A stretch of DNA of 64,000 nucleotides from the UHGV virus genome UHGV-0020956, one strand, 5' to 3'. Positions 3,600 through 64,000 of this stretch are shown here, piece by piece; position 1 is the stretch's first letter, and each line of letters opens with the position of its first letter. A model generated the notes under the pieces. The model was given only the letters and a program-made list of their open reading frames with translations, had not been told where the DNA came from and searched no databases. Origin of the DNA: a virus. The translations under genes were made by a program, and so were the position numbers.

Positions 3600-4877
3600 T
3601 TAAAACGCTGACACTAGCTTAATTTCTTTTTGTAATGTCAAATCATCAGCTTCTATTGTCAAAATTAATAAATCAGACGTAGGTTTTATACAAGTTAAAG
3701 CATATGTATTATCTGATTTAGATAAATTATAATACCCTTGTTTAACACCAGTCGCAGTTACAGTAACATCAACATTTTGTTTAACACCGTTAATCATCAG
3801 CATTGGTTCAAAAATTTGAACACTGCCTTGACGTACTTGCGTGAAAACAGGGGTTATAACAATCTCTTTTTTCTCAACCACAGTTTCTACCACAGTGCAT
3901 ACTGCTTCGTCTTGTACTGTCTTGTACTGACTGGTAGCCACATGAAATTCAATTTTAGACCCTATTTCAACCTCTGCTGAAATTTGATAATTGCCATTTT
4001 CGTCTATTGTTGCACTTTCAGACGGTACAGCCCACCATTGTAAAGGAATAGACAGTCGCTCATTGTCCCTCATTACAATAGCTTGTAACCTACCGCTACC
4101 ACCTTGTACCACCTCAAATTCACCATCTTGTATCATAATCGAAAAAGTATGCTCATAACGATTAGCCACATTATTTTCAGTATCATCAGACGGTTGAATT
4201 TCATCAAGATATAAATCTATATAAAGAATAGTAGTATCTTGGTCTATATAACTATTCTGCATATAATTATTATATCCAGTAATTTTAAAAGGTCTACCGT
4301 TAAAAATAAACCTTTTATTCTGTTTCCACTTGATTGTTTCCTTGTTTCCTTGTACAATCATTACAACATGGTTATCTGGCGTAACAATATCTTCCATGTA
4401 CTTAGGCGATGGTGAAGTAGGTGTATAGTCCAAAATACAAGGTACTGATATAATATCACCAGTATTTTCGTCTACATATTTTGCAAGATTATTACAACGT
4501 CTAACAACAACAGCTTCGGAAACACTGTTATAGTTATCTGTGTAAGTAGTAATCCAAAAGTTGTCATCAAATTGATATAATAATCCTCTAGTATTTCTAT
4601 CGGAAGAACCATTTTCTTGAATAATATCTTTGAAAATTAACTTTCTGAAATCATCACCGTTTTTACGTCCGGTGCTTGTTTCCTCTATAACATGATTTAT
4701 ATAAACCTCAATAGGATTAAATTCAAAAGAACCTATTTCAGTTTCTTCGCCTACGCCATACTGCACAGTAGTATTATCCCATTGAAAATTAACCAATGCT
4801 TGCATATCGTTTCTATACTTACTGTTAGGGGTCATAGCCAGACCCTCTAGGTAAGCACCATAATAAGTTAATGCCAT
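3600..4877 (-). CDS. hypothetical structural protein (possible tail/receptor-binding component)
   Basis: 425 aa ORF in structural operon; no recognisable motif. Confidence 0.35.
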   Translation of the reverse strand: MALTYYGAYLEGLAMTPNSKYRNDMQALVNFQWDNTTVQYGVGEETEIGSFEFNPIEVYINHVIEETSTGRKNGDDFRKLIFKDIIQENGSSDRNTRGLLYQFDDNFWITTYTDNYNSVSEAVVVRRCNNLAKYVDENTGDIISVPCILDYTPTSPSPKYMEDIVTPDNHVVMIVQGNKETIKWKQNKRFIFNGRPFKITGYNNYMQNSYIDQDTTILYIDLYLDEIQPSDDTENNVANRYEHTFSIMIQDGEFEVVQGGSGRLQAIVMRDNERLSIPLQWWAVPSESATIDENGNYQISAEVEIGSKIEFHVATSQYKTVQDEAVCTVVETVVEKKEIVITPVFTQVRQGSVQIFEPMLMINGVKQNVDVTVTATGVKQGYYNLSKSDNTYALTCIKPTSDLLILTIEADDLTLQKEIKLVSAF

Positions 4878-4892
4878 GGCTATGCCCTCCTT

Positions 4893-5129
4893 TTATTTTA
4901 CTAAATCTATTGCTTGAAAAATAGAAGCCTTTACCATATAATGTGTAGCTTCTGTTCCTAATTTGTTTAAACCTCTTATAATAATAATAACTTGTTCGTT
5001 TATCTCATTTTTCTTTACACCGTTTAGCCAGACTAATAAGGTTTCTAAATATTTATAATAATCTTCCCTTGAAGTTTCATAAATACATAAAGCCTTATAT
5101 AATTTTCCGATAATTAAACTTTTATTCAT
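4893..5129 (-). CDS. hypothetical small protein
   Basis: 78 aa ORF, start overlaps upstream gene stop. Confidence 0.3.
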   Translation of the reverse strand: MNKSLIIGKLYKALCIYETSREDYYKYLETLLVWLNGVKKNEINEQVIIIIRGLNKLGTEATHYMVKASIFQAIDLVK

Positions 5130-5575
5130 TAAAACACCAACTGCAAGTCTTTTATTTTGTCTATATTATCATTTTGATAATCCAAACTATCTTGCTTTAT
5201 CTTTTCTCTCATTCTATCCAGATATTCAGATTTAGCGTCCAGATTATTTGCTTCTGCATAATGTTTAAAGTCTGTATTAGTAAGGTGTAAATTAAATTGA
5301 GTAACATCATTAACATTGGTTTCAAACCATGTATATACGAACCAATCTGCTAATATACTTTGTTCTTTCAAAGTTAATTCATTAGCAAATTCTCTGGTTT
5401 CCATATCGTAATCAAGAGGTTGTAAACATTCAACAAATTTAGGTATAGATTTAATTAACATTCCATCAGTATATTTTTGAAAATCATCAGCACTTTTTTC
5501 GTAAAGTTTATCCAATTTGTAGTCACGAATAATAATTAATGCTAAGTCTTTTATACTATCAAAGGAAGTAGCCAT
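5129..5575 (-). CDS. hypothetical protein
   Basis: 148 aa ORF with RBS. Confidence 0.4.
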   Translation of the reverse strand: MATSFDSIKDLALIIIRDYKLDKLYEKSADDFQKYTDGMLIKSIPKFVECLQPLDYDMETREFANELTLKEQSILADWFVYTWFETNVNDVTQFNLHLTNTDFKHYAEANNLDAKSEYLDRMREKIKQDSLDYQNDNIDKIKDLQLVF

Positions 5576-5599
5576 AATGTTTCACCTCCTTTTCATTAA

Positions 5600-6262
5600 T
5601 TATTCAGCTTCAATTCCAACAAAATCAATTCCAGTAAGTTCACCAAGCTTAATCAGAATATTTGCATCAACTTCAATTCCTTGTGTACGCTTATTCTTAA
5701 TCATTTCAACAATGGTTTCTTTCTGACCTCTTGGAGCCATATTGTATAAATCAATGATTTTATTTGCATCATTATTGAAAATATTCTCAATAATATCTGG
5801 CGGTAACATCTTATTATATTCAGACGTTTTTCTTAATTTCTTAACAACTTCTTCATCAGCAATATAGAAATATCCCTCATTGGCGAATCTCTGATTATGT
5901 TGTACAATATCTTTCAAATCACCAAATGGTATATCCATAATCTGTCCAAAATCAGTAAAGGTATAAATATTTCCTTGACCTCTACCTTGTGTTGCTAAAT
6001 TTAACTCGCCTTGACACATACTTACAACTGGCACTTCAACTTCGAGGTAATTGTAAAACCTATCGTTACCAGACGGTACAGACTGGGTAACTCCTTGTGT
6101 CTTAACCTTTCCCTCTAAATCATTAAGTCTGTTCATAAGTGCTTCAAATTGCTCTGTACTAAGTGTTACCGTATTAGCAGATTTTTCTTCTACATTTTCT
6201 GTTACAGTTTCCTCAACAATAGGTGCTGTAGCAGTCTTTTTTGTTGTTTTTGCGGTTGCCAT
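5600..6262 (-). CDS. hypothetical protein (virion-associated?)
   Basis: 220 aa ORF, N-terminal Thr/Lys-rich low-complexity tail. Confidence 0.4.
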   Translation of the reverse strand: MATAKTTKKTATAPIVEETVTENVEEKSANTVTLSTEQFEALMNRLNDLEGKVKTQGVTQSVPSGNDRFYNYLEVEVPVVSMCQGELNLATQGRGQGNIYTFTDFGQIMDIPFGDLKDIVQHNQRFANEGYFYIADEEVVKKLRKTSEYNKMLPPDIIENIFNNDANKIIDLYNMAPRGQKETIVEMIKNKRTQGIEVDANILIKLGELTGIDFVGIEAE

Positions 6263-7671: not shown

Positions 7672-8781
7672 TTAATCTAATTTTATCATTGCGGCTGTTG
7701 AGTTTGACACGAACTCACACGCCCAACTCTTATTAATAGTGGTGTTAGATGTAAGATTTGCGTTATCGTAGTAGTTATTTCCGTTGCTAAGTTGGGTTCC
7801 CTCTAATACCATTTTAACTAACTTATCTGTAGATGGAGATACAACATAAATCTTCTTATCATCAAGTGCCAGAGAATACTTAGAGTAATCACCAGTAGCA
7901 ACCTGAGGAAGTACCATAATATCATAGTCAAAGAAGTTCTTGATAAGCTGAATACTCTGGGAGTTACTATCTGTTACGATTCTGTAACCATTAGCGGCAT
8001 TTGGAATAATCTTAGATAACGCAAGTGCGGTACCTACGATTACAGCTTTGTCACCCTGATTATAAGCAGTTACAGTCTGACACAGACCAAGCAGAGTGTC
8101 CTGTGTATAGCCAGTCTTAACTAAAGCTGTAGGATAAGTAGCCGCAGTTAAACCTGCGTTCAGTGCATTGTAAGCGTCCAGAGAGAAAGCAGTTTCCATA
8201 GAGCGAACAGCAGTTCTTACAAACTCTGCTAAATTCTCCTTACCTGCCAGAACCTTATACAGAGAAGCATAAACAGTAATGTTATGGTTTACTGGAATAA
8301 GTGTCTTGTTTGCACTAAACTGCTTCTGACGGATAGTGGTTCTCTGACCATGCGCGCCAGTAGAAACAGTCATTAATGCTCTTGGCTTAATCTCAAACTG
8401 TGCAGAATCACCCCAAGCCACATTACGAACCTCGGTATACAGACCAATAGAACGAATAATAGTTTCTGGTAATACTGCTTGAATTAACATATCAACAACA
8501 GCAAAAGCCGCCCACTGCATCATTGGATTAGCGACTAAATGCATAGGCTGAATATCTTCTGGCAGATTGCAACCTGCAAATCTCTGAACCTCGCCTAAGA
8601 AAGACTTGTTAATCTTATCTTCCTTTTCACTCAGAGAAACGGAATTATCAAAATCACCTAATTCCTTTTTATTTACCTTAGACATGTAATGGAAATAATA
8701 ATCTCTGAATCTGTCTACAAATTTTAAAGTGTCCTCATTACCATTAGAGAACTTAATAATGGATAAATCCTTAATAGCCAT
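7672..8781 (-). CDS. major capsid protein (candidate)
   Basis: 369 aa; position after scaffold-like and small head gene; strong RBS; followed by terminator; size typical of HK97-fold MCP. Confidence 0.55.
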   Translation of the reverse strand: MAIKDLSIIKFSNGNEDTLKFVDRFRDYYFHYMSKVNKKELGDFDNSVSLSEKEDKINKSFLGEVQRFAGCNLPEDIQPMHLVANPMMQWAAFAVVDMLIQAVLPETIIRSIGLYTEVRNVAWGDSAQFEIKPRALMTVSTGAHGQRTTIRQKQFSANKTLIPVNHNITVYASLYKVLAGKENLAEFVRTAVRSMETAFSLDAYNALNAGLTAATYPTALVKTGYTQDTLLGLCQTVTAYNQGDKAVIVGTALALSKIIPNAANGYRIVTDSNSQSIQLIKNFFDYDIMVLPQVATGDYSKYSLALDDKKIYVVSPSTDKLVKMVLEGTQLSNGNNYYDNANLTSNTTINKSWACEFVSNSTAAMIKLD

Positions 8782-31981: not shown

Positions 31982-32055
31982 GGAACAATATTTCAACTGG
32001 CAGAAAATTCGGCTCATAACCGAAAAGTTATAGGTTCGAGTCCTATTTGTTCCAC
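31982..32055 (+). tRNA. tRNA-Met (anticodon CAU; could be elongator, initiator or lysidinylated Ile)
   Basis: canonical cloverleaf: acceptor ggaacaa/ttgttcc, D-stem tttc/gaaa, anticodon stem ttcgg/ccgaa loop ctCATaa, T-arm atagg-ttcgagt-cctat. Confidence 0.85.
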
Positions 32056-42682: not shown

Positions 42683-42895
42683 TAAGATAGTTAAAAAAGA
42701 ATAGTTGTGGTGGAGAGTCCTAGCCCAGATATAGGAAAAACACGGAAGTTGCAATTTTTTAAATGTCAGAATATTTAAAAGAAATTGTAGAAAAGTGATA
42801 CAATTTAATTTTAAAATAATGCTTGATTTAATAGGGAAAAGTGGTATAATTAAACCATAGTTAAATAACATATAAAAACAAAGGAGAATAAAAAC

Positions 42896-43729
42896 ATGGC
42901 AAAAAATGTATATGAAATGGTAACAGATAGAATTATTGAAGAATTAGAAAAAGGCGTTATTCCTTGGAAAAAACCTTGGAAAAGTATTTCCAACGGAGCA
43001 TATAACAGAGTAAGTAAAAAACCTTATAGTTTACTTAATCAGCTTATGCTAAAGCATGAAGGAGAATATGCAACTTTTAAACAGTGGCAGGAAATGGGCG
43101 GAAAAATCAAAAAAGGAGCAAAGTCTGAATTTGTAGTGTTCTGGAAAATGTTAGCAGTTGAAGAAGAAAAAGACGGTGCTACTATTACAAAGACAATACC
43201 AATGTTACGGTATTACAACGTATTCCACATTTCACAGGTTGAAGGCGTTGAACCTTTGGAAACTGTAGAAGCTACACACAATGAACCAATAGAAGAAGCC
43301 GAAAAAGTGAAAAATGGTTATAGCACTAGGGAAAATATCCAGATCATAGAAGAAGTCGGAAATAAAGCATTTTATAGTCTTAGTGGGGATTATATCTGTA
43401 TCCCGTGTAAGGAGCAGTTTGAAAAAATCAATGAATACTACAGCACTGCCTTTCATGAAATGGTTCATAGTACTGGACACAAGAAAAGACTTGATAGATT
43501 AGTTAATGCCAAGTTTGGAAGTGAAAAGTACAGCAAAGAAGAACTGGTAGCAGAAATAGGTTCGGCAATGATTTTAAACGAACTGGGAATTGAAACATCA
43601 GATACATTTGAAAACTCTACAGCTTATATTCAGAGTTGGTTACAAGTTTTAAAAAATGATAGTAAGTTTATTGTTAGTGCTTCTGGAAAAGCAGAAAAAG
43701 CAGTAAAGTATATCTTAGGAATTGAATAA
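42896..43729 (+). CDS. ardC: ArdC-like antirestriction protein (N-terminal ssDNA-binding domain plus zincin-like metalloprotease domain)
   Basis: N-terminus VYEMVTDRIIEELEKGVIPWKKPW is the ArdC-N signature; C-terminal HEMVHSTGH HExxH motif. Confidence 0.8.
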   Translation: MAKNVYEMVTDRIIEELEKGVIPWKKPWKSISNGAYNRVSKKPYSLLNQLMLKHEGEYATFKQWQEMGGKIKKGAKSEFVVFWKMLAVEEEKDGATITKTIPMLRYYNVFHISQVEGVEPLETVEATHNEPIEEAEKVKNGYSTRENIQIIEEVGNKAFYSLSGDYICIPCKEQFEKINEYYSTAFHEMVHSTGHKKRLDRLVNAKFGSEKYSKEELVAEIGSAMILNELGIETSDTFENSTAYIQSWLQVLKNDSKFIVSASGKAEKAVKYILGIE

Positions 43730-47107: not shown

Positions 47108-47138
47108 TTATGTATAAAAACAAAGGAGAATAAAAGTT

Positions 47139-47942
47139 ATGACAAATATTACAAGATTTTTAAATGGTTTAAAGAGTGAACATACAAAGGTAGCATACGA
47201 GAATGATTTAAAACAGTTCTTTGATTTTACTGGTAAAGACGAAACTGAAATCACTTATGCTGATATTTACGATTACAAAGTGTCTATGAGTGAGTACAGC
47301 AGTGCTACAACAGCACGTAAACTGACAGCTATTAAATCCTATTTCAATTTTCTTTCTGACATGGAATTTATTTCTACTAATCCTTCTGCTAAAATCAAAA
47401 TTCCAAAAGTAAAGAATCACGAAAAAGAATATATCCCTATGGACGAAGCAAAGAAATTATTAGACGTTGCTAAATCCCCTAGAGATAAAGCTATCATTGC
47501 ATTATATCTTTCAACTGGTATGCGAGTTAATGAACTGGTGAATTTAACTGTAGAGCAGTATGAGAAAGATGAAATCGTATTTATTGCTAAAGGTGACAAG
47601 GAAAGAAAAGTATATCTTAATGATAAGTGTAGAGGATATATTAACGAATATTTAAAAGTTCGCAAAAATAGTGGTATTGATAATCTGTTTGTAAGTAATT
47701 ATGGTACACCTATGCGACATGATTTAATTGCTAAAATGTTAAAGAAAAATGCTAAAAAAGCAGGATTAAGTGAGGATATAACTAATCATAGCTTAAGGCA
47801 CAGCTATGTTTCATGTATTTGCGACAACTATGGTATTAATGTTGCGAAAGATGTTATAGGGCATAGTTCAACGAGAATTACTGAAAAATATGCACATAAT
47901 ACTCAAGATACAATTAAAAATGCCATGGTATCTGTTTTCTAA
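47139..47942 (+). CDS. tyrosine site-specific recombinase (XerC/D-like integrase)
   Basis: 267 aa; GMRVNEL (box I Arg), HSLRHSYVS (H-x-x-R), GHSSTRITEKYAH (catalytic Tyr). Confidence 0.8.
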   Translation: MTNITRFLNGLKSEHTKVAYENDLKQFFDFTGKDETEITYADIYDYKVSMSEYSSATTARKLTAIKSYFNFLSDMEFISTNPSAKIKIPKVKNHEKEYIPMDEAKKLLDVAKSPRDKAIIALYLSTGMRVNELVNLTVEQYEKDEIVFIAKGDKERKVYLNDKCRGYINEYLKVRKNSGIDNLFVSNYGTPMRHDLIAKMLKKNAKKAGLSEDITNHSLRHSYVSCICDNYGINVAKDVIGHSSTRITEKYAHNTQDTIKNAMVSVF

Positions 47943-54851: not shown

Positions 54852-55976
54852 GTGATATTGTTGGAAAAGGGTTTTAAGTATAGAATTTATCCAAATAAGA
54901 AACAGCAAGAGTTAATACAGAAAACGTTTGGCTGTTGTAGATATGTTTATAATTATTTCTTAGATAAAAGAATAACTGAGTATAAAGAAAATAAAAAGAC
55001 TTTAAGTTTTTATGATACAAATAAAATGCTTACTCAATTAAAGAAAGAAAACGAATGGCTTAAAGAACCAGATAAAAATGCTTTGCAAATAGCGTTAAGA
55101 AATTTAGATAAAGCTTATAAAAAATTTTTTAAACAACAGTCTGGCTATCCTAAATTTAAGTCTAAGAAAAATAATTATCAATCTTATACTACAAGTTGTA
55201 ATAAAAAAGTGCATAAAGATACAATAAGGATTGAAAACAAACATATCAGACTTCCAAAATTAGGTTTTGTAAAAATTCGTGATAAACAAGTTCCGCAAGG
55301 AAGAATACTTAATGCTACTATATCGCAAGAACCAAATGGACATTATTATTGTTCGTTATGTTGCACTGATATAGAATTTCCACAATATCCAAAAACAAAT
55401 AAAAATGTTGGAATAGATTTAGGAATTGTAGATTTTGCAATCTTATCTGACGGTATTAAGATTAAAAATCCTAGATTTTATGAAAAGTCAGAAAAGAAAC
55501 TTGCTAAGTTACAAAAAGAATTATCGAGAAAAACAATCGGTGGCTCTAATTGGAATAAAGCAAGAATTAAAGTTGCAAAACTATATAAACATATATCTAA
55601 TCAACGCAAAGATTTTTTACAGAAATTAACTACTAATTTTGTAAGACAATATGATATTATTTGTATTAAAGATTTAAGTATTAAATCTATGAAAGAAATA
55701 AGTTCAAAAATTCGTAACAAACATTTGGAAGATGTTTCATGGTTTGAATTTCGCAGAATGTTGACTTATAAATCTACATGGTATGGAAAGATATTATCTG
55801 TAATTGATAGATATTTTCCTTCTTCACAAATTTGTCATTGTTGTGGTGCTAATGGAGGTAAAAAGTCTGTTGAGATTAGATACTGGATTTGTTCTAACTG
55901 TGGTTCAAAATTAGATAGGGACGATAATGCTTCTATTAATATTTTGAATGAAGGAATGAGAATTTTAAGTGTTTAA
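54852..55976 (+). CDS. tnpB: IS200/IS605-family TnpB (RNA-guided nuclease-type transposon protein)
   Basis: 374 aa; N-terminal KGFKYRIYPNKKQQELIQKTFGCCRYVYN; C-terminal Zn finger CHCCG..CSNCGSK and RuvC-III DRDDNASINILN. Confidence 0.85.
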   Translation: MILLEKGFKYRIYPNKKQQELIQKTFGCCRYVYNYFLDKRITEYKENKKTLSFYDTNKMLTQLKKENEWLKEPDKNALQIALRNLDKAYKKFFKQQSGYPKFKSKKNNYQSYTTSCNKKVHKDTIRIENKHIRLPKLGFVKIRDKQVPQGRILNATISQEPNGHYYCSLCCTDIEFPQYPKTNKNVGIDLGIVDFAILSDGIKIKNPRFYEKSEKKLAKLQKELSRKTIGGSNWNKARIKVAKLYKHISNQRKDFLQKLTTNFVRQYDIICIKDLSIKSMKEISSKIRNKHLEDVSWFEFRRMLTYKSTWYGKILSVIDRYFPSSQICHCCGANGGKKSVEIRYWICSNCGSKLDRDDNASINILNEGMRILSV

Positions 55977-56891: not shown

Positions 56892-58019
56892 ATGGGTATT
56901 GACGCAAAACGTTTAACTAAACAACTAACTATAGACGATTATAGAAAAGTTGCTGTATCTCTAGGGGCTATAGTGATTCACGAAAATGACAGAGAAATAT
57001 TATTTACTTCTATATGCCATGAAAAAAATCCAGACGGCAAAAAGAATAAACTTTATTTCTACAAAGACAAAAAAATATTTCTCTGTTATATATGTGATGT
57101 TTCTTATTCTGTTTATAGCTTAGTTCAGAAAAGAAAAAAACTTCTGGGAGAGGAATATACTTTCCCAGAAGCATTACAATATGTTTGTGATGTTTGTAAT
57201 ATTCCTTATGACGATATACAAAGGATTCATAAGAAAAGCACAAAAGTATATAATTGGGAAGATGATTTAAGTAGATATATCCGTATAAAAAACGGAGATT
57301 CACTCACACAAACTTATGATAAAGCTATCTTAGATTTTTTCCCAAAAATATATCATTCCTCTTTTCTTAATGATGGCATAAGTATTCAGACTATGGAAAT
57401 GTTTGGGATAAGATTTTATCCGTATGCTCAACAAATAGTAATTCCTGTTTTTGATGAAAACGGAGAATTGGTTGGGCTACATGGTAGAAATCTCAATCCA
57501 GAGTTAGTAGAAATGGGTTACAAATATCTTCCAGTTAAACTTGTAGAGAATAATGCTGAATATAGGTTTAACGCTTCTACTGTCTTGTACGGACTGAATT
57601 GGACAAAAGCAAACATAGAAAACACCAAAGAAGCTATTTTATTTGAAGCACCAAAAAGTGTTATGCAAATGGAAGATATATTAACAGTTAATAATACTGT
57701 TGGCATGTTTGGAATGAATTTGCAGAACGCCAAAAGGAATAAACTTATCCAATTAGGTGTTGAAAGAGTTGGAATTGCTTTAGATAAACAGTATCATACG
57801 GTATATGATGATAATGGTGAACTTACAGAAGAATATGTTAAATGGAAAGCAAAAGTAAACAAAATCATTGATAAGTTTAAAGGTTTTGTAAAAGAGATTT
57901 ATGTTATCTATGACGATAATGATAAAGAGCCTTTGTTAAGCTATAAAGATTCTCCCTCTGATAAAGGCAAGGAAGTATGGGGAAAATTATATGAAAAAAG
58001 AGAAATTGTTGAACAGTAA
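56892..58019 (+). CDS. DnaG-like DNA primase (CHC2 Zn finger + TOPRIM)
   Basis: SICHEKNPDGKKNKLYFYKDKKIFLCYICD (C-H-C-C) and TOPRIM-like ILFEAPKSVMQMED / ALDKQYHTVYDDNGE. Confidence 0.55.
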   Translation: MGIDAKRLTKQLTIDDYRKVAVSLGAIVIHENDREILFTSICHEKNPDGKKNKLYFYKDKKIFLCYICDVSYSVYSLVQKRKKLLGEEYTFPEALQYVCDVCNIPYDDIQRIHKKSTKVYNWEDDLSRYIRIKNGDSLTQTYDKAILDFFPKIYHSSFLNDGISIQTMEMFGIRFYPYAQQIVIPVFDENGELVGLHGRNLNPELVEMGYKYLPVKLVENNAEYRFNASTVLYGLNWTKANIENTKEAILFEAPKSVMQMEDILTVNNTVGMFGMNLQNAKRNKLIQLGVERVGIALDKQYHTVYDDNGELTEEYVKWKAKVNKIIDKFKGFVKEIYVIYDDNDKEPLLSYKDSPSDKGKEVWGKLYEKREIVEQ

Positions 58020-58227
58020 AAAAGAATCATATAATTGGTTAAGATTTTTTGGTGAATTAATATTGGTTATTTTAATTTCACCGATTTTAATTATATTAAC
58101 TATTGTATTTGTTATTATAGAACAGTTAATAAAATTATATGAAAAACATTTTAAAAAGCATTGACATATCGTACAAAATATGTTATGATAAATCTATCAA
58201 ATTAATAACGAAAGGAAAATATAAACA

Positions 58228-59052
58228 ATGGCAGAGAACACAACTGAATTAAAAGAAGTAGAGTTAGAACTTAACAAGGTGGTTTTAACAGGAACTATCA
58301 CAGAGGATTTTACTTATCATCATTCCACAAAAGGAACAAATATTTATAAGAGTTTCATTTGTGTAAAAAGAGATAGCGGTACTGATGATGTGCTTCCTAT
58401 CATGGCTTCTGAAAAAGTCCTTAAAGAAGCGTTTTCACTTACCGAGGAAAAGTCCTACGGCTCACAGAATTACACAGTCTGCGTTGAGGGAATTATGGCT
58501 TCTTACAATGAGCATATTGAGAACGGCAAGAGTAAGTTAATTTTATTTGTTAAACCAAATAATATCTTAATTGTTGCTGACAATACAAAACCGAGTAATA
58601 ACATTGAAATTACTGGTTATATTGTAAAAGATGTGATTGTAAGAAAAACCCCTGGTCTTAAAGACGAGAAAGGTATTTGGGTTAAACAGGAAAGAACCAT
58701 TGCTGATGTTATGTTAGGTGTTAATATCAACACGAATAAACGTTGTGTATCTTATTACATTCCTTGTATCTTTTGGGGTAAAGCTGCTTCTGCTATTGGT
58801 AAATTAGGAATTGGTACACAGGTTAATATTCGTGGACGTGTTCAGAGTAGAAAGTACAATAAGAGATATGAAAATGGCAATATTGAAGAAAAGGTTGCTT
58901 ACGAAATTTCTGTGGCAGATGCAATGTTAGTTGACAAACAGGGTAATGTAAGTAATTTAGTAAAAGTTGAACCAAAGAAGCCAGTAAAAGAAAAACGTAA
59001 TAAAGTCACAGTAAAAACTAGGCACAATCCAAACGGATTCAACCTAGACTAA
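58228..59052 (+). CDS. SSB-like OB-fold ssDNA-binding protein
   Basis: 274 aa; CIFWGKAASAIGKLGIGTQVNIRGRVQSRKY matches the SSB pattern (VVFGKLAE..LRKGSQVYVEGRLQTRKW). Confidence 0.5.
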   Translation: MAENTTELKEVELELNKVVLTGTITEDFTYHHSTKGTNIYKSFICVKRDSGTDDVLPIMASEKVLKEAFSLTEEKSYGSQNYTVCVEGIMASYNEHIENGKSKLILFVKPNNILIVADNTKPSNNIEITGYIVKDVIVRKTPGLKDEKGIWVKQERTIADVMLGVNINTNKRCVSYYIPCIFWGKAASAIGKLGIGTQVNIRGRVQSRKYNKRYENGNIEEKVAYEISVADAMLVDKQGNVSNLVKVEPKKPVKEKRNKVTVKTRHNPNGFNLD

Positions 59053-59119
59053 TTTAGAAATTCAGAAAAAGTAAAAGCACTCTTATATAAGGGTGCTTTT
59101 CTTGGTATAAGGAGTATAT

Positions 59120-60835
59120 ATGCGAGTAAAAGAAATTTTGCCTAACATTGATTTATCAAGATGGGAGCAACAGTATTTAGAAGCATTTGGAATTAAAGAT
59201 GTTGAAGAATATTTGTATCCAACTTTTAAATATGTTGAACGCCCAGAACGATATGATAACATGGAAGAGGGGAAAGAACTATTATACAAGATAATAAGTA
59301 ATCAGACTAATCATATAGGAATTATACAAGATTGCGACGGTGATGGTTTGTTTTCTGCTGTTATGATGTATAATTTTCTTAAAAACGATTTAAAAGTTAA
59401 GAATCCTATTTTCATATATTTTCATTCAGATAAAAAACATGGTATTACAGAAAACGTACAGAACTGGGTACTACATAATGAAATCAATTTGTTAATTGTG
59501 CCAGATGCAGGTAGCAATGACTATCAAGCACAAGAAGATTTGAATTTCCTTAATACCCATATATTGATAATAGACCATCACAAGATTGCTCCGTATAAAA
59601 GGGAATATATTAGTAATTATGAAACAGTGGTGATTAGCAATCAACAAGGTTGGGTAAAGAATAAGTGCCTTAGTGGTACTGGCGTTGTGAATAAATTTAT
59701 TAAATATTATTGCAATAATAATCCAAGTTGTAAAGCAAGTGCAAGTGTAAAATATGTAGACTTGGTAGCATTTAGTTTAGTATCTGATAATTGCAATATG
59801 CTTTCACAAGAGAATAGAGATTTTCTAATGGTAGGCACTTCTATAGCAAATATGCAGAACGAATTTTTAACTTATCTGAACGAACATTTAAACTATACTA
59901 ATGAAGTTACTTGGAAATCAATAGGGTTTATAATTTGTCCTTATCTTAATGCAGTATGTAGAAGTAACAACCAACAGTTGAAAGCTGAATTGTTTTTTTG
60001 TTTTACTAGCGGTCATTCAGAAATGTTTGAAAGTGTACTAGCCAAAATTAAAGACCAAAAAGCTATACAGGATAAGATTGTTGCTGAAACAGTTAAAGAC
60101 GGCTGTAGCATGGTTCTACGCATTGATAACGTACCGTTGTTAGGAATCAAGTACCTTGAAAATGTGGAACAGCACCCTTATAGTGGCTTGATTGCTAATA
60201 AGCTGAAAGACGAAACTCCGATTGTGTTTGCTACACATGAAAGTAATGGATTTGTAACTGGTTCTTGTCGGTCTGATTATGAAATTCTTGAATTATGCCA
60301 AGATAGTGGGTTATTTGAAATTGCACAAGGTCATGATAAAGCATTTGGAATTGGATATAAAAAAGAAAACGAAGAAAAGATTTATAAATATATTCAAGAT
60401 AAATTCACCAACGAAAAAATAGAATTACCGTCAATTCCAGTTGTAAAAAAATATGATTTGGAAAAAGAAGATTTTTCAAAATGTCTGTTCGGATTTGCAG
60501 ACCAATGGGAATATATCTGGAATAACGATTTGATTAGACCAGTTTTTGCCATTGATTTTAAATTAAAAATTTCTGATGTAGAGGTAATCGGAAAAGACAA
60601 AAACACATTACGGTTTAGTATAAACGGGGTAACGTTCATTAAATTTAAAGAGAGCGAGAACTGGTTAGATGATATGTCAGAACGGCTTGTACTGGCTTCT
60701 ACTATCTGTAACCTATCTATAAATTATTGGAATGGTCGAAAATATTACCAAGCTATTATTGAAGAATGGGAAATTAAAGAAATATCCCAAGAAGTAAAAG
60801 AAATTAAACCACTTTCATGGGATGATGTGTGGTAA
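59120..60835 (+). CDS. RecJ-like DHH-family phosphoesterase (ssDNA exonuclease)
   Basis: DHH motifs IQDCDGDGLFS, VPDAGSND and IIDHHK. Confidence 0.6.
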   Translation: MRVKEILPNIDLSRWEQQYLEAFGIKDVEEYLYPTFKYVERPERYDNMEEGKELLYKIISNQTNHIGIIQDCDGDGLFSAVMMYNFLKNDLKVKNPIFIYFHSDKKHGITENVQNWVLHNEINLLIVPDAGSNDYQAQEDLNFLNTHILIIDHHKIAPYKREYISNYETVVISNQQGWVKNKCLSGTGVVNKFIKYYCNNNPSCKASASVKYVDLVAFSLVSDNCNMLSQENRDFLMVGTSIANMQNEFLTYLNEHLNYTNEVTWKSIGFIICPYLNAVCRSNNQQLKAELFFCFTSGHSEMFESVLAKIKDQKAIQDKIVAETVKDGCSMVLRIDNVPLLGIKYLENVEQHPYSGLIANKLKDETPIVFATHESNGFVTGSCRSDYEILELCQDSGLFEIAQGHDKAFGIGYKKENEEKIYKYIQDKFTNEKIELPSIPVVKKYDLEKEDFSKCLFGFADQWEYIWNNDLIRPVFAIDFKLKISDVEVIGKDKNTLRFSINGVTFIKFKESENWLDDMSERLVLASTICNLSINYWNGRKYYQAIIEEWEIKEISQEVKEIKPLSWDDVW

Positions 60836-60893
60836 AATGTATTGATTTTATATAAGTTTTATGTTATAATAAAGAATATGAAAGGAGAAACAT

Positions 60894-61328
60894 ATGGAAA
60901 AATTTAAAGATAAAACTTATATTGTAGTTTGTAGTGATTTTGATAAAGCTAGAAACGCTATTAGAAAAGAACTGTATAAACATTATCAAAGGGATAGTGA
61001 CGAGCCAAGTGTTACCAGAGAGATTAAAGCTATGACAATTAACGATACTAAAATAAAAGAAACTTATAGAGGTAATCTTAGACTTATTGAAAATGTAGGT
61101 CGAGATTATTTAAAAGGCTACGCTTATTCCAGATTAAATCCATTTGATAGCATTAAGATTTTATGGTTGGATATTAACAAATTTAAGAATCCGTCAAAAG
61201 GTAATTTTGGGTATTATGATGATGTTGTGAAAGTTATTATTGTAGGTAATGACAGTTTATCATTTTATCTTAACAACTTAAAGAAAAGTTTTAATTTGGA
61301 TATAGAAGTAGAAATTATAATGATGTAA
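60894..61328 (+). CDS. hypothetical protein
   Basis: 144 aa ORF with RBS gaaaggagaaacatATG. Confidence 0.45.
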   Translation: MEKFKDKTYIVVCSDFDKARNAIRKELYKHYQRDSDEPSVTREIKAMTINDTKIKETYRGNLRLIENVGRDYLKGYAYSRLNPFDSIKILWLDINKFKNPSKGNFGYYDDVVKVIIVGNDSLSFYLNNLKKSFNLDIEVEIIMM

Positions 61329-61342
61329 AAGGAGAGAATGTT

Positions 61343-61744
61343 ATGATTAATGATGTAACTTATGAACTGATTAGAATTGTAAAGAAAATTGACTTAAATA
61401 ATAGTTTATTTGAGAGAACAGAAGAAAGTAATATTAGTAAAATCGTAAATAAAGACATTGAAAATCTTATTAAAGAAATGGTGGAAACTGATAGCCAGTT
61501 CAGATTTAAGAAAAACATTTTCGATAGACAGTACGGAATGAATGTTAAATATTTAAGATGTGGTGAGGTAGTTATTAAATCTAAAGAGGGGCTAGGGTTG
61601 GTAACTGTTATGGATATTGATGAATTTTTAGAAGTGCTGAGTTTTAGAATTTATAATGGGATTGAGAAAACAAAAGAAGAACATAAGAACTGGAAGTTGT
61701 GGAAAATGAGTAAGGTGGATTTGGAGAAAATGGGAGTTATGTAG
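61343..61744 (+). CDS. hypothetical protein
   Basis: 133 aa ORF with RBS aaaggagagaatgttATG. Confidence 0.45.
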   Translation: MINDVTYELIRIVKKIDLNNSLFERTEESNISKIVNKDIENLIKEMVETDSQFRFKKNIFDRQYGMNVKYLRCGEVVIKSKEGLGLVTVMDIDEFLEVLSFRIYNGIEKTKEEHKNWKLWKMSKVDLEKMGVM

Positions 61745-61752
61745 GTGATAAT

Positions 61753-63042
61753 ATGGGAAAGTTTATAGATATGACTGGTTGGAGAATGTCAGAACATGGT
61801 GTTCCAAATAGTAGGTTGACTGTTATTGAAAGAGCAGAAGATACTTTTAGTCCAAAAGGTTCGAGAATTACTAATTGGAAATGTAAATGCGATTGTGGAA
61901 AAATAAAAGTTATACAAGGTACAGCATTAAGAAAAGGTGTTGTTTTATCTTGTGGCTGTTATCATCTTGAGTTGCTTTTAGCAAGTGTTAAAAGTAGAAA
62001 AATGGTTAATAAATATGTTGATAAAGGTGACTATTTAGAAGGTTATGACGGAAAAGGTAATTGCTTTTTAATTGATAAAGACGATTATAATAAAGTAAAA
62101 GATTACCGTTGGAATATGGACAATCATGGATATTGGTGTTATAGCACTTCTTCTAAAGAAAATGGTCGAACCAGAATAAAAATGCATAAATTGATTTGCC
62201 CCTCACCTTCTAAAGATTTAGTAGTAGACCATTATAATAGAAATCGTTCTGATAATAGAAAAAACAATTTGTTTTTAAAAACACCTAGAGAAAATGGAAT
62301 AAATAAAGAAATTCCTTCTAATAATACTTCTGGATTTATTGGTGTCAGCCAAAGAAAAGACGGGTATTGGGTAGTAAGAATTAATACTGACGTTGATAAA
62401 ACAAGGATGATTAGTAGTTTTGCAACAAAAGAAGAAGCTTTAATATGTAGATTAAACTTTGAAAAATTGTATTACAAAGAAAATGCTCCACAAAGACATT
62501 TATTTGAAGAATATAATATAACAGAAGAAGGTGCAAAAGAATATTGTAATCAAATTTTTAAAAGAATTGATAATACAAGTGGAACAATGGGTGTTTTTAA
62601 AAGAGAAAATAAAGATACATGGCGAGTAGAAATTAGGGTAAAAAATGAAAGAAAAAATTTTGGTAGTTTTACAAATAAAGAAGAAGCTATAAGAGTTAGA
62701 CTTCTTATGGAAAAATATTATTATGGTGACAATGCTTTACAGAAAAATCTTTTTGATAAATATAACATTACTTTAGAAGAAGCTATAAAGTTTCATGATG
62801 ATTTTTATAAAAAGAAAGAAATAGAAAAAGAAAAGAAAAAAGATAAAATAACAGGTGTAAGCTATTCAGAAAAAATAAAAAAATGGGAAGTTTATATTTG
62901 TGTTAATAGAAAAAATATATACTTAGGTGCTTATAAAGATAAGAATGATGCTATTATAGCGAGATTAAAAGGTGAAATAAAATATAGAGGTAAGGATAAC
63001 GCACCACAGAAACATTTATTTAAACAATACGGAATAGAGTAG
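61753..63042 (+). CDS. HNH homing endonuclease with three AP2-type DNA-binding repeats (free-standing)
   Basis: HNH motif VVDHYNRNRSDNRKNNL; AP2-like repeats SGFIGVSQRKDGYWVVRI, SGTMGVFKRENKDTWRVEIRV, KITGVSYSEKIKKWEVYICV; flanked by duplicated gtaggtgataatatg. Confidence 0.75.
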   Translation: MGKFIDMTGWRMSEHGVPNSRLTVIERAEDTFSPKGSRITNWKCKCDCGKIKVIQGTALRKGVVLSCGCYHLELLLASVKSRKMVNKYVDKGDYLEGYDGKGNCFLIDKDDYNKVKDYRWNMDNHGYWCYSTSSKENGRTRIKMHKLICPSPSKDLVVDHYNRNRSDNRKNNLFLKTPRENGINKEIPSNNTSGFIGVSQRKDGYWVVRINTDVDKTRMISSFATKEEALICRLNFEKLYYKENAPQRHLFEEYNITEEGAKEYCNQIFKRIDNTSGTMGVFKRENKDTWRVEIRVKNERKNFGSFTNKEEAIRVRLLMEKYYYGDNALQKNLFDKYNITLEEAIKFHDDFYKKKEIEKEKKKDKITGVSYSEKIKKWEVYICVNRKNIYLGAYKDKNDAIIARLKGEIKYRGKDNAPQKHLFKQYGIE

Positions 63043-63050
63043 GTGATAAT

Positions 63051-64000
63051 ATGAGCGTAGAATTTAGTTATTTTAATTGTCATTCTCATACAGGAAAAGG
63101 TTCTAATCTTCGTATGTTAGATTGTACAATAAAGGTAAAAGATTTAATAAATACAGCTTTAGAATTAGGATATAAAGGTTTAGCAATTACAGACCATTCT
63201 TCTTTAAGCGCTCATATCGAAGCCATTCAGTATGTTAAAGAATTAAAGAAGCAAGGAAAAGATTTTATTCTTGGACTAGGTTCTGAGGAATATTTAGTTA
63301 ATTCTTTATATGATACAAAAGAAAATTATGAAAGTGGTGTGACAAAATTTTGGCATTTTATTTTTATTGCTAAAGATGAAATAGGCTATGAGCAACTTAG
63401 ACGCATTGATAGCCAAGCATGGGATAATAGCTTTTTTACTGGTAAAATGCGTAGAACTCCTATTGAAAAATCACAAGTAGAAAATATTATAAGAGAAGAA
63501 AAAGGACATTTATTAATTACTTTTGCTTGCTTGGGCGGTGAATTAGCCGCCCTTGTAAAGCAATATTTAGAAAATCCTACTAAAGAAAATAAAATGGAAA
63601 TACATCAGTTTATTACTTGGTGTATTAACCTTTTTGGAAAAGAAAATATTGGTTTTGAATTACAACCAAATACACAAGAAGAACAAATTAACTATAATAA
63701 ATTTTTATTAACTTTATCAAAAGCTTATGATATTAAAACTGTATTAGGTCTTGACTGCCATTATCTTAGAAAAGAAGATAGAAAAGTACATGAAGCCTTT
63801 ATTAAAAGTAGAGATTCTATAGATAGAGAAGTGGGTGATTTTTATAGTAGCACTTACTTACATTCTTATGAAGAAATGAAAGAAGCATTAAATTATTTAA
63901 CAGATGAAGAATTTAAAACCTTGTTAGACAATTCTTATAATTTTGCTAAAAATATTAATTTTATTGATATGGAACACACTACTATTATTCCAGAAAGAGA
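63051..64000 (+). CDS. DNA polymerase III alpha subunit (PHP domain), N-terminal part; continues beyond window
   Basis: NCHSHTGKGSNLRMLDC ... LAITDHSSL is the PHP-domain metal-binding signature of PolC/DnaE-type polymerases. Confidence 0.65.
   Translation, partial: MSVEFSYFNCHSHTGKGSNLRMLDCTIKVKDLINTALELGYKGLAITDHSSLSAHIEAIQYVKELKKQGKDFILGLGSEEYLVNSLYDTKENYESGVTKFWHFIFIAKDEIGYEQLRRIDSQAWDNSFFTGKMRRTPIEKSQVENIIREEKGHLLITFACLGGELAALVKQYLENPTKENKMEIHQFITWCINLFGKENIGFELQPNTQEEQINYNKFLLTLSKAYDIKTVLGLDCHYLRKEDRKVHEAFIKSRDSIDREVGDFYSSTYLHSYEEMKEALNYLTDEEFKTLLDNSYNFAKNINFIDMEHTTIIPER

Follow-up and report, generated by a model that had tools for sequence, protein, structure and literature searches.

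An HNH-AP2 endonuclease gene, probably a homing endonuclease gene, in a mosaic slot beside an exchanged polymerase gene of an SPbeta-like gut phage

We analysed a 64,000-nucleotide stretch of the virus genome UHGV-0020956 (the window), which near its end carries the SPbeta-like replication module of a gut phage. Within this module a gene for an HNH-AP2 endonuclease lies between a small gene, orf133, and the gene for a DnaE-like DNA polymerase, and the same 15 nucleotides, GTAGGTGATAATATG, are found at the start of the endonuclease gene and again at the start of the polymerase gene. An earlier note on this DNA had read the two copies as the precise footprint of an inserted cassette. Comparison with related loci points elsewhere. 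The endonuclease gene is probably a homing endonuclease gene (HEG) in a mosaic slot of fast turnover next to a polymerase gene that is swapped as a cassette, and the 15-mer is a start signal that the two genes share and that was probably copied once. The relatives are metagenomic loci (L numbers below), retrieved via orf133, RecJ and the HNH protein. The features on which the argument depends are these:

61343-61744, + strand: orf133, from the list of open reading frames (ORFs), the upstream neighbour of the HNH gene; 77-89% amino acid identity in all relatives of the phage group.
61741-61755, + strand: 5' copy of GTAGGTGATAATATG, made up of the orf133 stop codon TAG (61742-61744), the Shine-Dalgarno (SD) sequence AGGTGAT (61743-61749), the spacer AAT and the HNH start codon ATG (61753-61755).
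61753-63042, + strand: free-standing HNH-AP2 endonuclease gene, 429 amino acids (Pfam HNH_3 and AP2, PHROG).
61756-62950 (right limit approximate), + strand: hypervariable body of the HNH gene, 40-75% nucleotide identity to the L020-25 and L055 alleles; flanks 85-100%.
61876-61959, + strand: N-terminal Cys motif WKCKCDCG...SCGC of the HNH protein.
62221-62298, + strand: HNH_3 motif VVDHYNRNRSDNRKNNL, the catalytic stretch of the HNH protein.
Starts at ~62329, 62578 and 62851, + strand: three AP2 repeats, also matched in PHROG; an NAPQ+HLF+YNI/GIE linker comes after each of them.
62989-63042, + strand: conserved 3' end of the HNH ORF, encoding ...DNAPQKHLFKQYGIE and the stop; in each of the three alleles found with type A polymerase, its DNA forms one continuous stretch with the polymerase flank.
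63039-63053, + strand: 3' copy of GTAGGTGATAATATG, made up of the HNH stop codon TAG (63040-63042), the SD sequence AGGTGAT, the spacer AAT and the polymerase start codon ATG (63051-63053).
63051-64000, + strand: 5' part of the gene for a type A DnaE-like (PHP domain) DNA polymerase (Pfam PHP, 1.8e-20), which runs past the end of the window.

The endonuclease passes the Pfam gathering score for both HNH_3 (31.9 bits, cut-off 24.8) and AP2 (35.9 bits, cut-off 33.3), and it matches PHROG families of HNH endonucleases, the best at 1.3e-47. Its AP2 domains lie C-terminal to the HNH nuclease domain, the arrangement of the HNH-AP2 proteins, which are an established HEG family (PMC10448857, PMC2248197). 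The gene has an ORF to itself, flanked by orf133 and the polymerase gene, and is variably present, as befits a free-standing HEG. With the PHP domain in the downstream ORF, these matches bear out the gene assignments of the earlier note. The stretch VVDHYNRNRSDNRKNNL (residues 157-173) is conserved in four of four aligned alleles, and no allele has lost the D-H...N...N motif. P0007, a homologue from another phage group, likewise retains the C-terminal ...QKHLWKEYGIE. Among the contigs read, 14 carry the window's HNH protein. Rfam found no intron or other RNA at the endonuclease locus, no solved structure is related to the HNH protein by sequence, and the window holds no second HNH-AP2 copy.

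The 15-mer occurs exactly twice in the window, on the + strand both times, with a spacing of 1298 bp and in the same register at two consecutive gene starts, as had been reported. The adjoining bases differ between the copies on either side, and the identity is thus confined to the 15 nucleotides. Exact repeats are not rare per se in this window of 30.8% GC, where 71 repeated 15-mers were counted and ~17 are expected from a first-order Markov model; the G-rich GTAGGTGATAATATG itself has an expected count of ~1e-4 per strand. When the 15-nucleotide start contexts of 81 putative genes are compared (~3,240 pairs), this is the sole pair that matches at 15 of 15 positions, and the runner-up matches at 13. 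The dominant ribosome-binding site (RBS) of the window is AAAGGAG. AGGTGAT with a spacer of 3-4 nucleotides precedes only 4 of the 81 genes, which rules out a generic RBS of the genome as the full explanation and removes a doubt that the earlier note had itself raised. These counts confirm that the repeat is real and non-random.

AGGTGAT is complementary to the 16S rRNA 3' end and suitably spaced for pairing with it. The two genes could therefore have arrived independently at the same strong, stop-overlapping AGGTGAT, three-nucleotide A/T spacer and ATG for efficient coupled translation, with no copying at all. Between them, the stop codon, the SD sequence and the start codon fix all but about 5 of the 15 positions, and an unrelated gene on the minus strand (9401-11170) has the start context AGGTGATAATTTG, a 13/15 match. 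There, too, the SD sequence encloses the preceding ORF's stop codon, so that part of the similarity could be functional; another unrelated pair of genes has a common leader and RBS of 23 nucleotides. However, the SD type is scarce, yet its two exact copies stand in adjacent genes, and their full match is an outlier beside the 13/15 pair. In addition, the polymerase copy of one group of relatives (L020-25) has drifted to AGGTAAT, which implies weak selection on the exact sequence. We regard independent origin as unlikely and favour a single copying event over pure convergence because the identity extends to non-essential positions and the two genes are adjacent.

The 23-nucleotide leader, TATAAAAACAAAGGAGAATAAAA, is a second re-used start signal in this genome. 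It is identical at 42871-42893 and 47113-47135, ahead of two unrelated genes, an ArdC-like anti-restriction protein gene (42896-43729) and a tyrosine-integrase-like gene (47139-47942), and in each case downstream of a promoter-like -10 element.

A near-identity DNA search of GenBank phages with 60800-64000 gave no match, and neither did tblastn with orf133. In the metagenomic relatives the polymerase ORF occurs in three types (A, B and C) that are 29-49% identical in amino acid sequence, and the flanks (SSB, RecJ, orf144, orf133 and helicase) are 77-98% identical. The loci can be arranged as follows:

Group a, L017-19 and L033-38: same phage, 100%; allele P0001, 429 amino acids; 15-mer at the 5' junction; polymerase type A with the 15-mer.
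Group b, L020-25: allele P0002, 428 amino acids, 47% amino acid identity; 5' junction GTTATGTGATTATGG, no 15-mer; polymerase type A, 97% amino acid identity, start signal GTAGGTAATAATATG.
Group c, L055: allele P0003, 341 amino acids, two AP2 repeats; exact 15-mer at the 5' junction; polymerase type A, 97% amino acid identity, exact 15-mer.
Group d, L056-58: allele P0004, 282 amino acids, one AP2 repeat; exact 15-mer at the 5' junction; polymerase type C, 98% amino acid identity to that of L007; AAAGGAGAATTAATATG.
Group e, L005/6, L039/40 and L050: no HNH gene; junction GTTATGTGATTATGG; polymerase type B.
Group f, L007-16 and L041-49: no HNH gene; orf133 with a different end; polymerase type C; AAAGGAGAATTAATATG.

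Four alleles thus occupy the slot, of 429, 428, 341 and 282 amino acids with 3, 3, 2 and 1 AP2 repeats, and their amino acid identity is 47-54%. The window's orf133 was found on 18 contigs, all of which, among the places shown, have the 15-mer followed by the HNH start, and allele P0002 was found on 11. Other relatives with a 92-93% identical RecJ lack the HNH gene (L005-16 and L039-50). Such presence/absence and allele polymorphism among close relatives agrees with the earlier proposal of a mobile endonuclease gene. The HNH gene of L055 is 100% identical to that of the window over its first ~60 nucleotides, has a third divergent sequence in the middle, and is like that of L020 at its 3' end. 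In L056-58 the HNH ORF ends in ATGA and runs into the type C polymerase's own, unrelated RBS; the HEG-less type C junction reads ...GAGAAATATATTTAAGTTGTACTAAAGGAGAATTAATATG.

In all loci scanned, the 15-mer (allowing one mismatch) is found only before polymerase type A or before an HNH 5' end of the GGAAAGTTTATA type. The latter is the 5' end of the alpha-type HNH allele and follows the 5' 15-mer in the window lineage, L055 and L056-58. In L056-58 the gene behind this copy is followed by a type C polymerase with an unrelated RBS. The 5' copy there belongs to the endonuclease gene as its start signal; it does not duplicate that of the neighbour and has no counterpart at the polymerase. Conversely, the 3' copy of L020-25, GTAGGTAATAATATG, differs from GTAGGTGATAATATG by one mismatch and has no partner at the 5' junction.

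The earlier note proposed that a cassette of ~1.3 kb had been inserted with duplication of the polymerase RBS and start, in which case the 15-mers would be the ends of the unit and its excision would restore an empty site. The repeat is indeed exact, in register and statistically unusual, the pair is kept in a second, divergent lineage (L055), and in every allele the 3' copy goes with polymerase type A; removal of one 1298-bp repeat unit would also leave the orf133 stop and the polymerase RBS intact. However, an empty site with a single copy, as expected of a target-site duplication, was not seen. None of 23 distinct HEG-less loci of the phage group has the 15-mer, even at one mismatch, contrary to what had been predicted for such junctions; as their polymerases are of types B or C, not A, the comparison is a loose one for an empty type A site. 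Nor does the repeat flank every occupant of the site, since the P0002 allele of L020-25 fills the same slot with a 3' copy only (at one mismatch) and L056-58 have a 5' copy only, before the type C polymerase.

The ends of the variable segment also lie elsewhere. The sole near-isogenic pair with and without the HEG is L056 and L007, whose flanks are 98.6% and 96.5% identical and which differ by an insertion/deletion (indel) of 837 bp (L056 946-1782; L007 ~6384). This indel takes in the last five orf133 codons together with the 15-mer and almost the whole HNH gene; 38 nucleotides before the polymerase ATG remain. Its ends, inside orf133 and 38 nucleotides upstream of that ATG, are thus not at the 15-mer, and they share only ~2-4 nucleotides of microhomology. 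Because the indel removes the last five codons, orf133 of L007-16 ends in ...LEKYI instead of ...NMGVM, and this altered C-terminus suggests that the HEG-less form of L007 arose by imprecise loss of the HEG. Among the alleles, the divergent block extends from 61741 to ~62950-62990, and within it nucleotide identity falls from 85-100% to 40-75%; relative to L055, which is 100% identical to the window through ~61780, the block begins at ~61780. The conserved right flank therefore includes the last 50-90 nucleotides of the HNH ORF. Judged by their sequences the alleles are mosaic, and the limits of the exchanged unit are not fixed.

The segment that relatives gain, lose or exchange does not end at the repeats, and the precise footprint delimiting a ~1.3 kb unit is not upheld. 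Homing, moreover, depends on the repair of a double-strand break with a homologous donor as template, a process that leaves no target-site duplication. We consider the insertion of such a cassette improbable; as a hypothesis it applies at most to how this HNH lineage first came to be associated with polymerase type A.

Two further observations concern this region. The sequences between orf133 and the HNH gene read GTTATGT-AGGT-GAT-AA-TATGG in the window (61735-61757) and GTTATGT-GAT-TATGG in L020 (~7985-8005), and the GTTATGTGATTATGG form is common to the HNH junction of L020 and the HEG-less type B polymerase junction. Since the same junction stands before two different genes, the start codon region seems to be a recurrent recombination point. 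An insertion of ~1.7 kb in L013 (~4260-6000), between orf144 and orf133, was ruled out as a HEG; it consists of IS200/IS605 TnpA and TnpB.

From the contrast between the polymerase types and their flanks, the polymerase ORF, too, is exchanged as an exact cassette among relatives. Its left breakpoint is at the orf133 stop and polymerase start, and homology is back by an 80-amino-acid ORF and a helicase downstream. The type A polymerase is 1321 amino acids at full length (seen in L017), is 45% identical in amino acid sequence to YorL of SPbeta, and carries at its 5' end, for example, CATTCTCATACAGGAAARGGTTCTAATCTTCGTATG. There is no nuclease gene 3' of it, where the 80-amino-acid ORF and the helicase are found, and the HEG is on the 5' side only. 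HNH genes accompany all three polymerase types: such a gene always lies upstream of type A and in some genomes upstream of type C, and type B is interrupted by HNH-encoding inserts.

We thus favour a HEG in a rapidly changing slot beside an exchanged polymerase gene. The 15-mer would act as a translation-initiation signal at two adjacent junctions, the 3' copy as the start signal of polymerase type A and the 5' copy as that of one family of HNH 5' ends, with which it would travel, even to a position before a different polymerase. Most likely the copies owe their exact identity to a single old event, either copying or recombination, at the start codon. The 15-mer would accordingly not be re-made at each insertion, nor would it bound the unit that is now exchanged; what relatives appear to exchange is the HNH body, with breakpoints in orf133 and the HNH ORF, and the whole polymerase ORF. 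By analogy with characterised free-standing HEGs, the enzyme would cut the polymerase locus of co-infecting relatives that lack the HEG or carry another allele, and recombinational repair would then copy the HEG together with neighbouring polymerase sequence.

Several points weigh against this account. The cleavage specificity and homing of the HNH-AP2 enzyme are only inferred. The exact identity of the copies could be convergence, given that an unrelated gene uses AGGTGATAAT plus TTG. Both lineages with the 5' copy have G at position 7 of the 3' copy and the lineage without it has A, a pattern that a recent duplication in a common ancestor would fit as well. Finally, all genomes found with a type A polymerase carry an HNH gene upstream (14 contigs with the window's HNH protein, 18 with its orf133, 11 with P0002, and L055), and no HEG-less type A genome, and hence no ancestral junction, was recovered among the genomes searched.

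This last absence has been only weakly tested, because the protein database search was blind and IMG/VR, JGI and GTDB hold no close type A polymerase. In a large protein database the polymerase found nothing above 68% identity, and the search also missed the window's own cluster. The polymerase N-terminus had only matches of at most 48% identity in IMG/VR, GTDB genomes and JGI metagenomes. The predicted empty-site sequence is absent from IMG/VR. The polymerases of L029-32 are type A-like (58-68% amino acid identity) and have no HNH gene upstream; these loci are uninformative about the junction, having unrelated promoters and RBSs in other phage backgrounds.

The presence of an HNH gene in every type A genome found leaves room for a fixed accessory role with that polymerase type. 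The gene might not be selfish but a domesticated part of the type A module, retained for its usefulness, perhaps as a nuclease in replication or against competing phages. The catalytic motif is intact in all alleles, and related HNH genes appear to be translationally coupled to DnaE polymerases in other phage groups. In particular, homologues of the window's HNH protein (44-49% amino acid identity) lie directly upstream of DnaE polymerases in other phage backgrounds (L051-54 and L059), where the HNH stop codon overlaps the polymerase start codon. Against such a role, the alleles are only 47-54% identical in backgrounds that are 90-97% identical, and their AP2 repeats vary from one to three. 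The HNH gene is dispensable before the type C polymerase (L007-16 versus L056-58), and more distant homologues (39-41%) adjoin other genes, namely a helicase-like gene or a DNA ligase gene. We give domestication only a slim chance.

A bolder extension, on which we would place rather little weight, is that of a translation-neutral plug-in. Here a cassette with the same stop-overlapping SD sequence and ATG at both ends would be gained and lost by recombination between the 15-bp copies while sparing polymerase expression, and an HNH-AP2 lineage specialised to sites upstream of DnaE-type genes would drive the replacement of whole polymerases in SPbeta-like gut phages.

A HEG slot beside a cassette-swapped polymerase is a known kind of arrangement. 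DNA polymerase genes are frequent neighbours of AP2-associated HNH HEGs (the IPA-HNH class, related to HNH_3 but divergent), in 29% of cases in one survey. A HEG can also give way to a homologue at the same location, whether or not the two share nucleotide identity, and such regions have no discrete boundaries (PMC10448857). The IPA-HNH class of that study, unlike the window's protein, does not match Pfam HNH_3. As in the HEG-islands of Barth, Dunham and Seed 2023 (PMC10448857), the HEG of the window stands beside an essential polymerase gene, diverged cognate HEGs occupy the same location, and a cargo gene is exchanged between related phages as part of a unit without discrete boundaries. However, in the window there is one flanking HEG, whereas HEG-islands are bracketed on both sides. 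The polymerase types (29-49% amino acid identity) also diverge far more than their flanks, the reverse of a conserved island in diverged genomes.

Free-standing HNH-AP2 HEGs are known from the Xanthomonas phages Xp10, OP1 and Xop411, from T5 and from T4-related phages (Magnani et al. 2004, as cited in PMC10448857 and PMC2248197). The window's gene is like them in its N-terminal H-N-N nuclease, its C-terminal AP2 domain, its intergenic position, its variable presence and its truncated forms. It differs from them in its three tandem AP2 repeats, its N-terminal Cys-rich motif, its SPbeta-like gut phage background and its seemingly tight coupling to both neighbours by translation signals.

Short direct repeats around an accessory gene also recall the target-site duplications of transposons and insertion sequences. 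The resemblance ends there: the empty sites have no single copy, other alleles lack one copy, the repeat is a functional RBS and start signal, and the HNH locus has neither a transposase nor terminal inverted repeats. Another parallel is the work of Sandegren et al. 2005, in which SegH/Hef reportedly replace mobC/mobE at one intergenic site of T4-related phages. There, as here, different endonuclease genes are said to occupy the same intergenic slot of close relatives, but at the window's locus every alternative is an HNH-AP2 homologue, and these alleles form mosaics of each other.

The locus leaves knowledge of how homing endonucleases work unchanged. It offers a natural example, in uncultured SPbeta-like phages of the human gut, of a rapidly turned-over HEG slot with four alleles and one to three AP2 repeats, of a whole essential replicative polymerase gene swapped as a cassette beside it, and of two near-isogenic genomes only one of which has the endonuclease gene. 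It also advises caution, in that short direct repeats around an accessory gene of an operon can be re-used translation signals, and reading them as an insertion footprint needs comparison with empty sites.

Type B polymerase genes have inserts encoding HNH-motif proteins at two positions (L005 3981-5231, with an ORF of 296 amino acids at 4275-5165; L006 7815-8650, with an ORF of 154 amino acids at 8072-8536). Rfam found no group I intron at the gathering threshold in the interrupted type B polymerases, and the inserts may be either introns or free-standing HEGs that split the polymerase gene. The many database polymerases of ~455-476 amino acids suggest that a split near residue 460 is common. 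The type B locus L039 (CAAGHO010000049.1; RecJ 93% amino acid identity) is on an 85.8 kb contig in a human-gut metagenome-assembled genome (MAG) named 'Bacilli bacterium HGM10839', and this assignment is the sole hint of a host. A 265-amino-acid HNH_3 gene interrupts the RecJ-like DHH gene of another phage group in L051 and L054 (211-2788), and L052 has the DHH gene intact (1343-2788), which constitutes another presence/absence polymorphism of a HEG in a replication gene.

Upstream of orf133, the replication module of the window contains the following genes:

58228-59052: SSB.
59120-60835: RecJ-like DHH exonuclease.
60894-61328: orf144.

orf133 itself has no Pfam or PHROG match. Across 58000-64000 we found no consensus terminator, and the 38 promoter-like matches there are no excess over the 32.8 expected from shuffled sequence. 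The HNH gene would thus be transcribed by read-through of the operon. Its translation would begin from the SD sequence that overlaps the orf133 stop, and the HNH stop in turn overlaps the identical SD sequence and ATG of the polymerase. From this layout, translation may be passed along the operon from orf133 to the HNH gene and on to the polymerase.

Elsewhere in the window, a TnpB-only ORF of the IS200/IS605 family (54852-55976) lies between the DnaB helicase gene and a Sipho_Gp157-like gene and is absent from L020-25. The 17-mer TGGTATATTATAACCAT occurs three times (38383, 40863 and 41415), each time as an extended -10 element with TTGACA ~17 nucleotides before it, and the copies are probably a family of strong phage promoters. 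A tRNA gene is located at 31982-32054 (Rfam RF00005, 68.5 bits).

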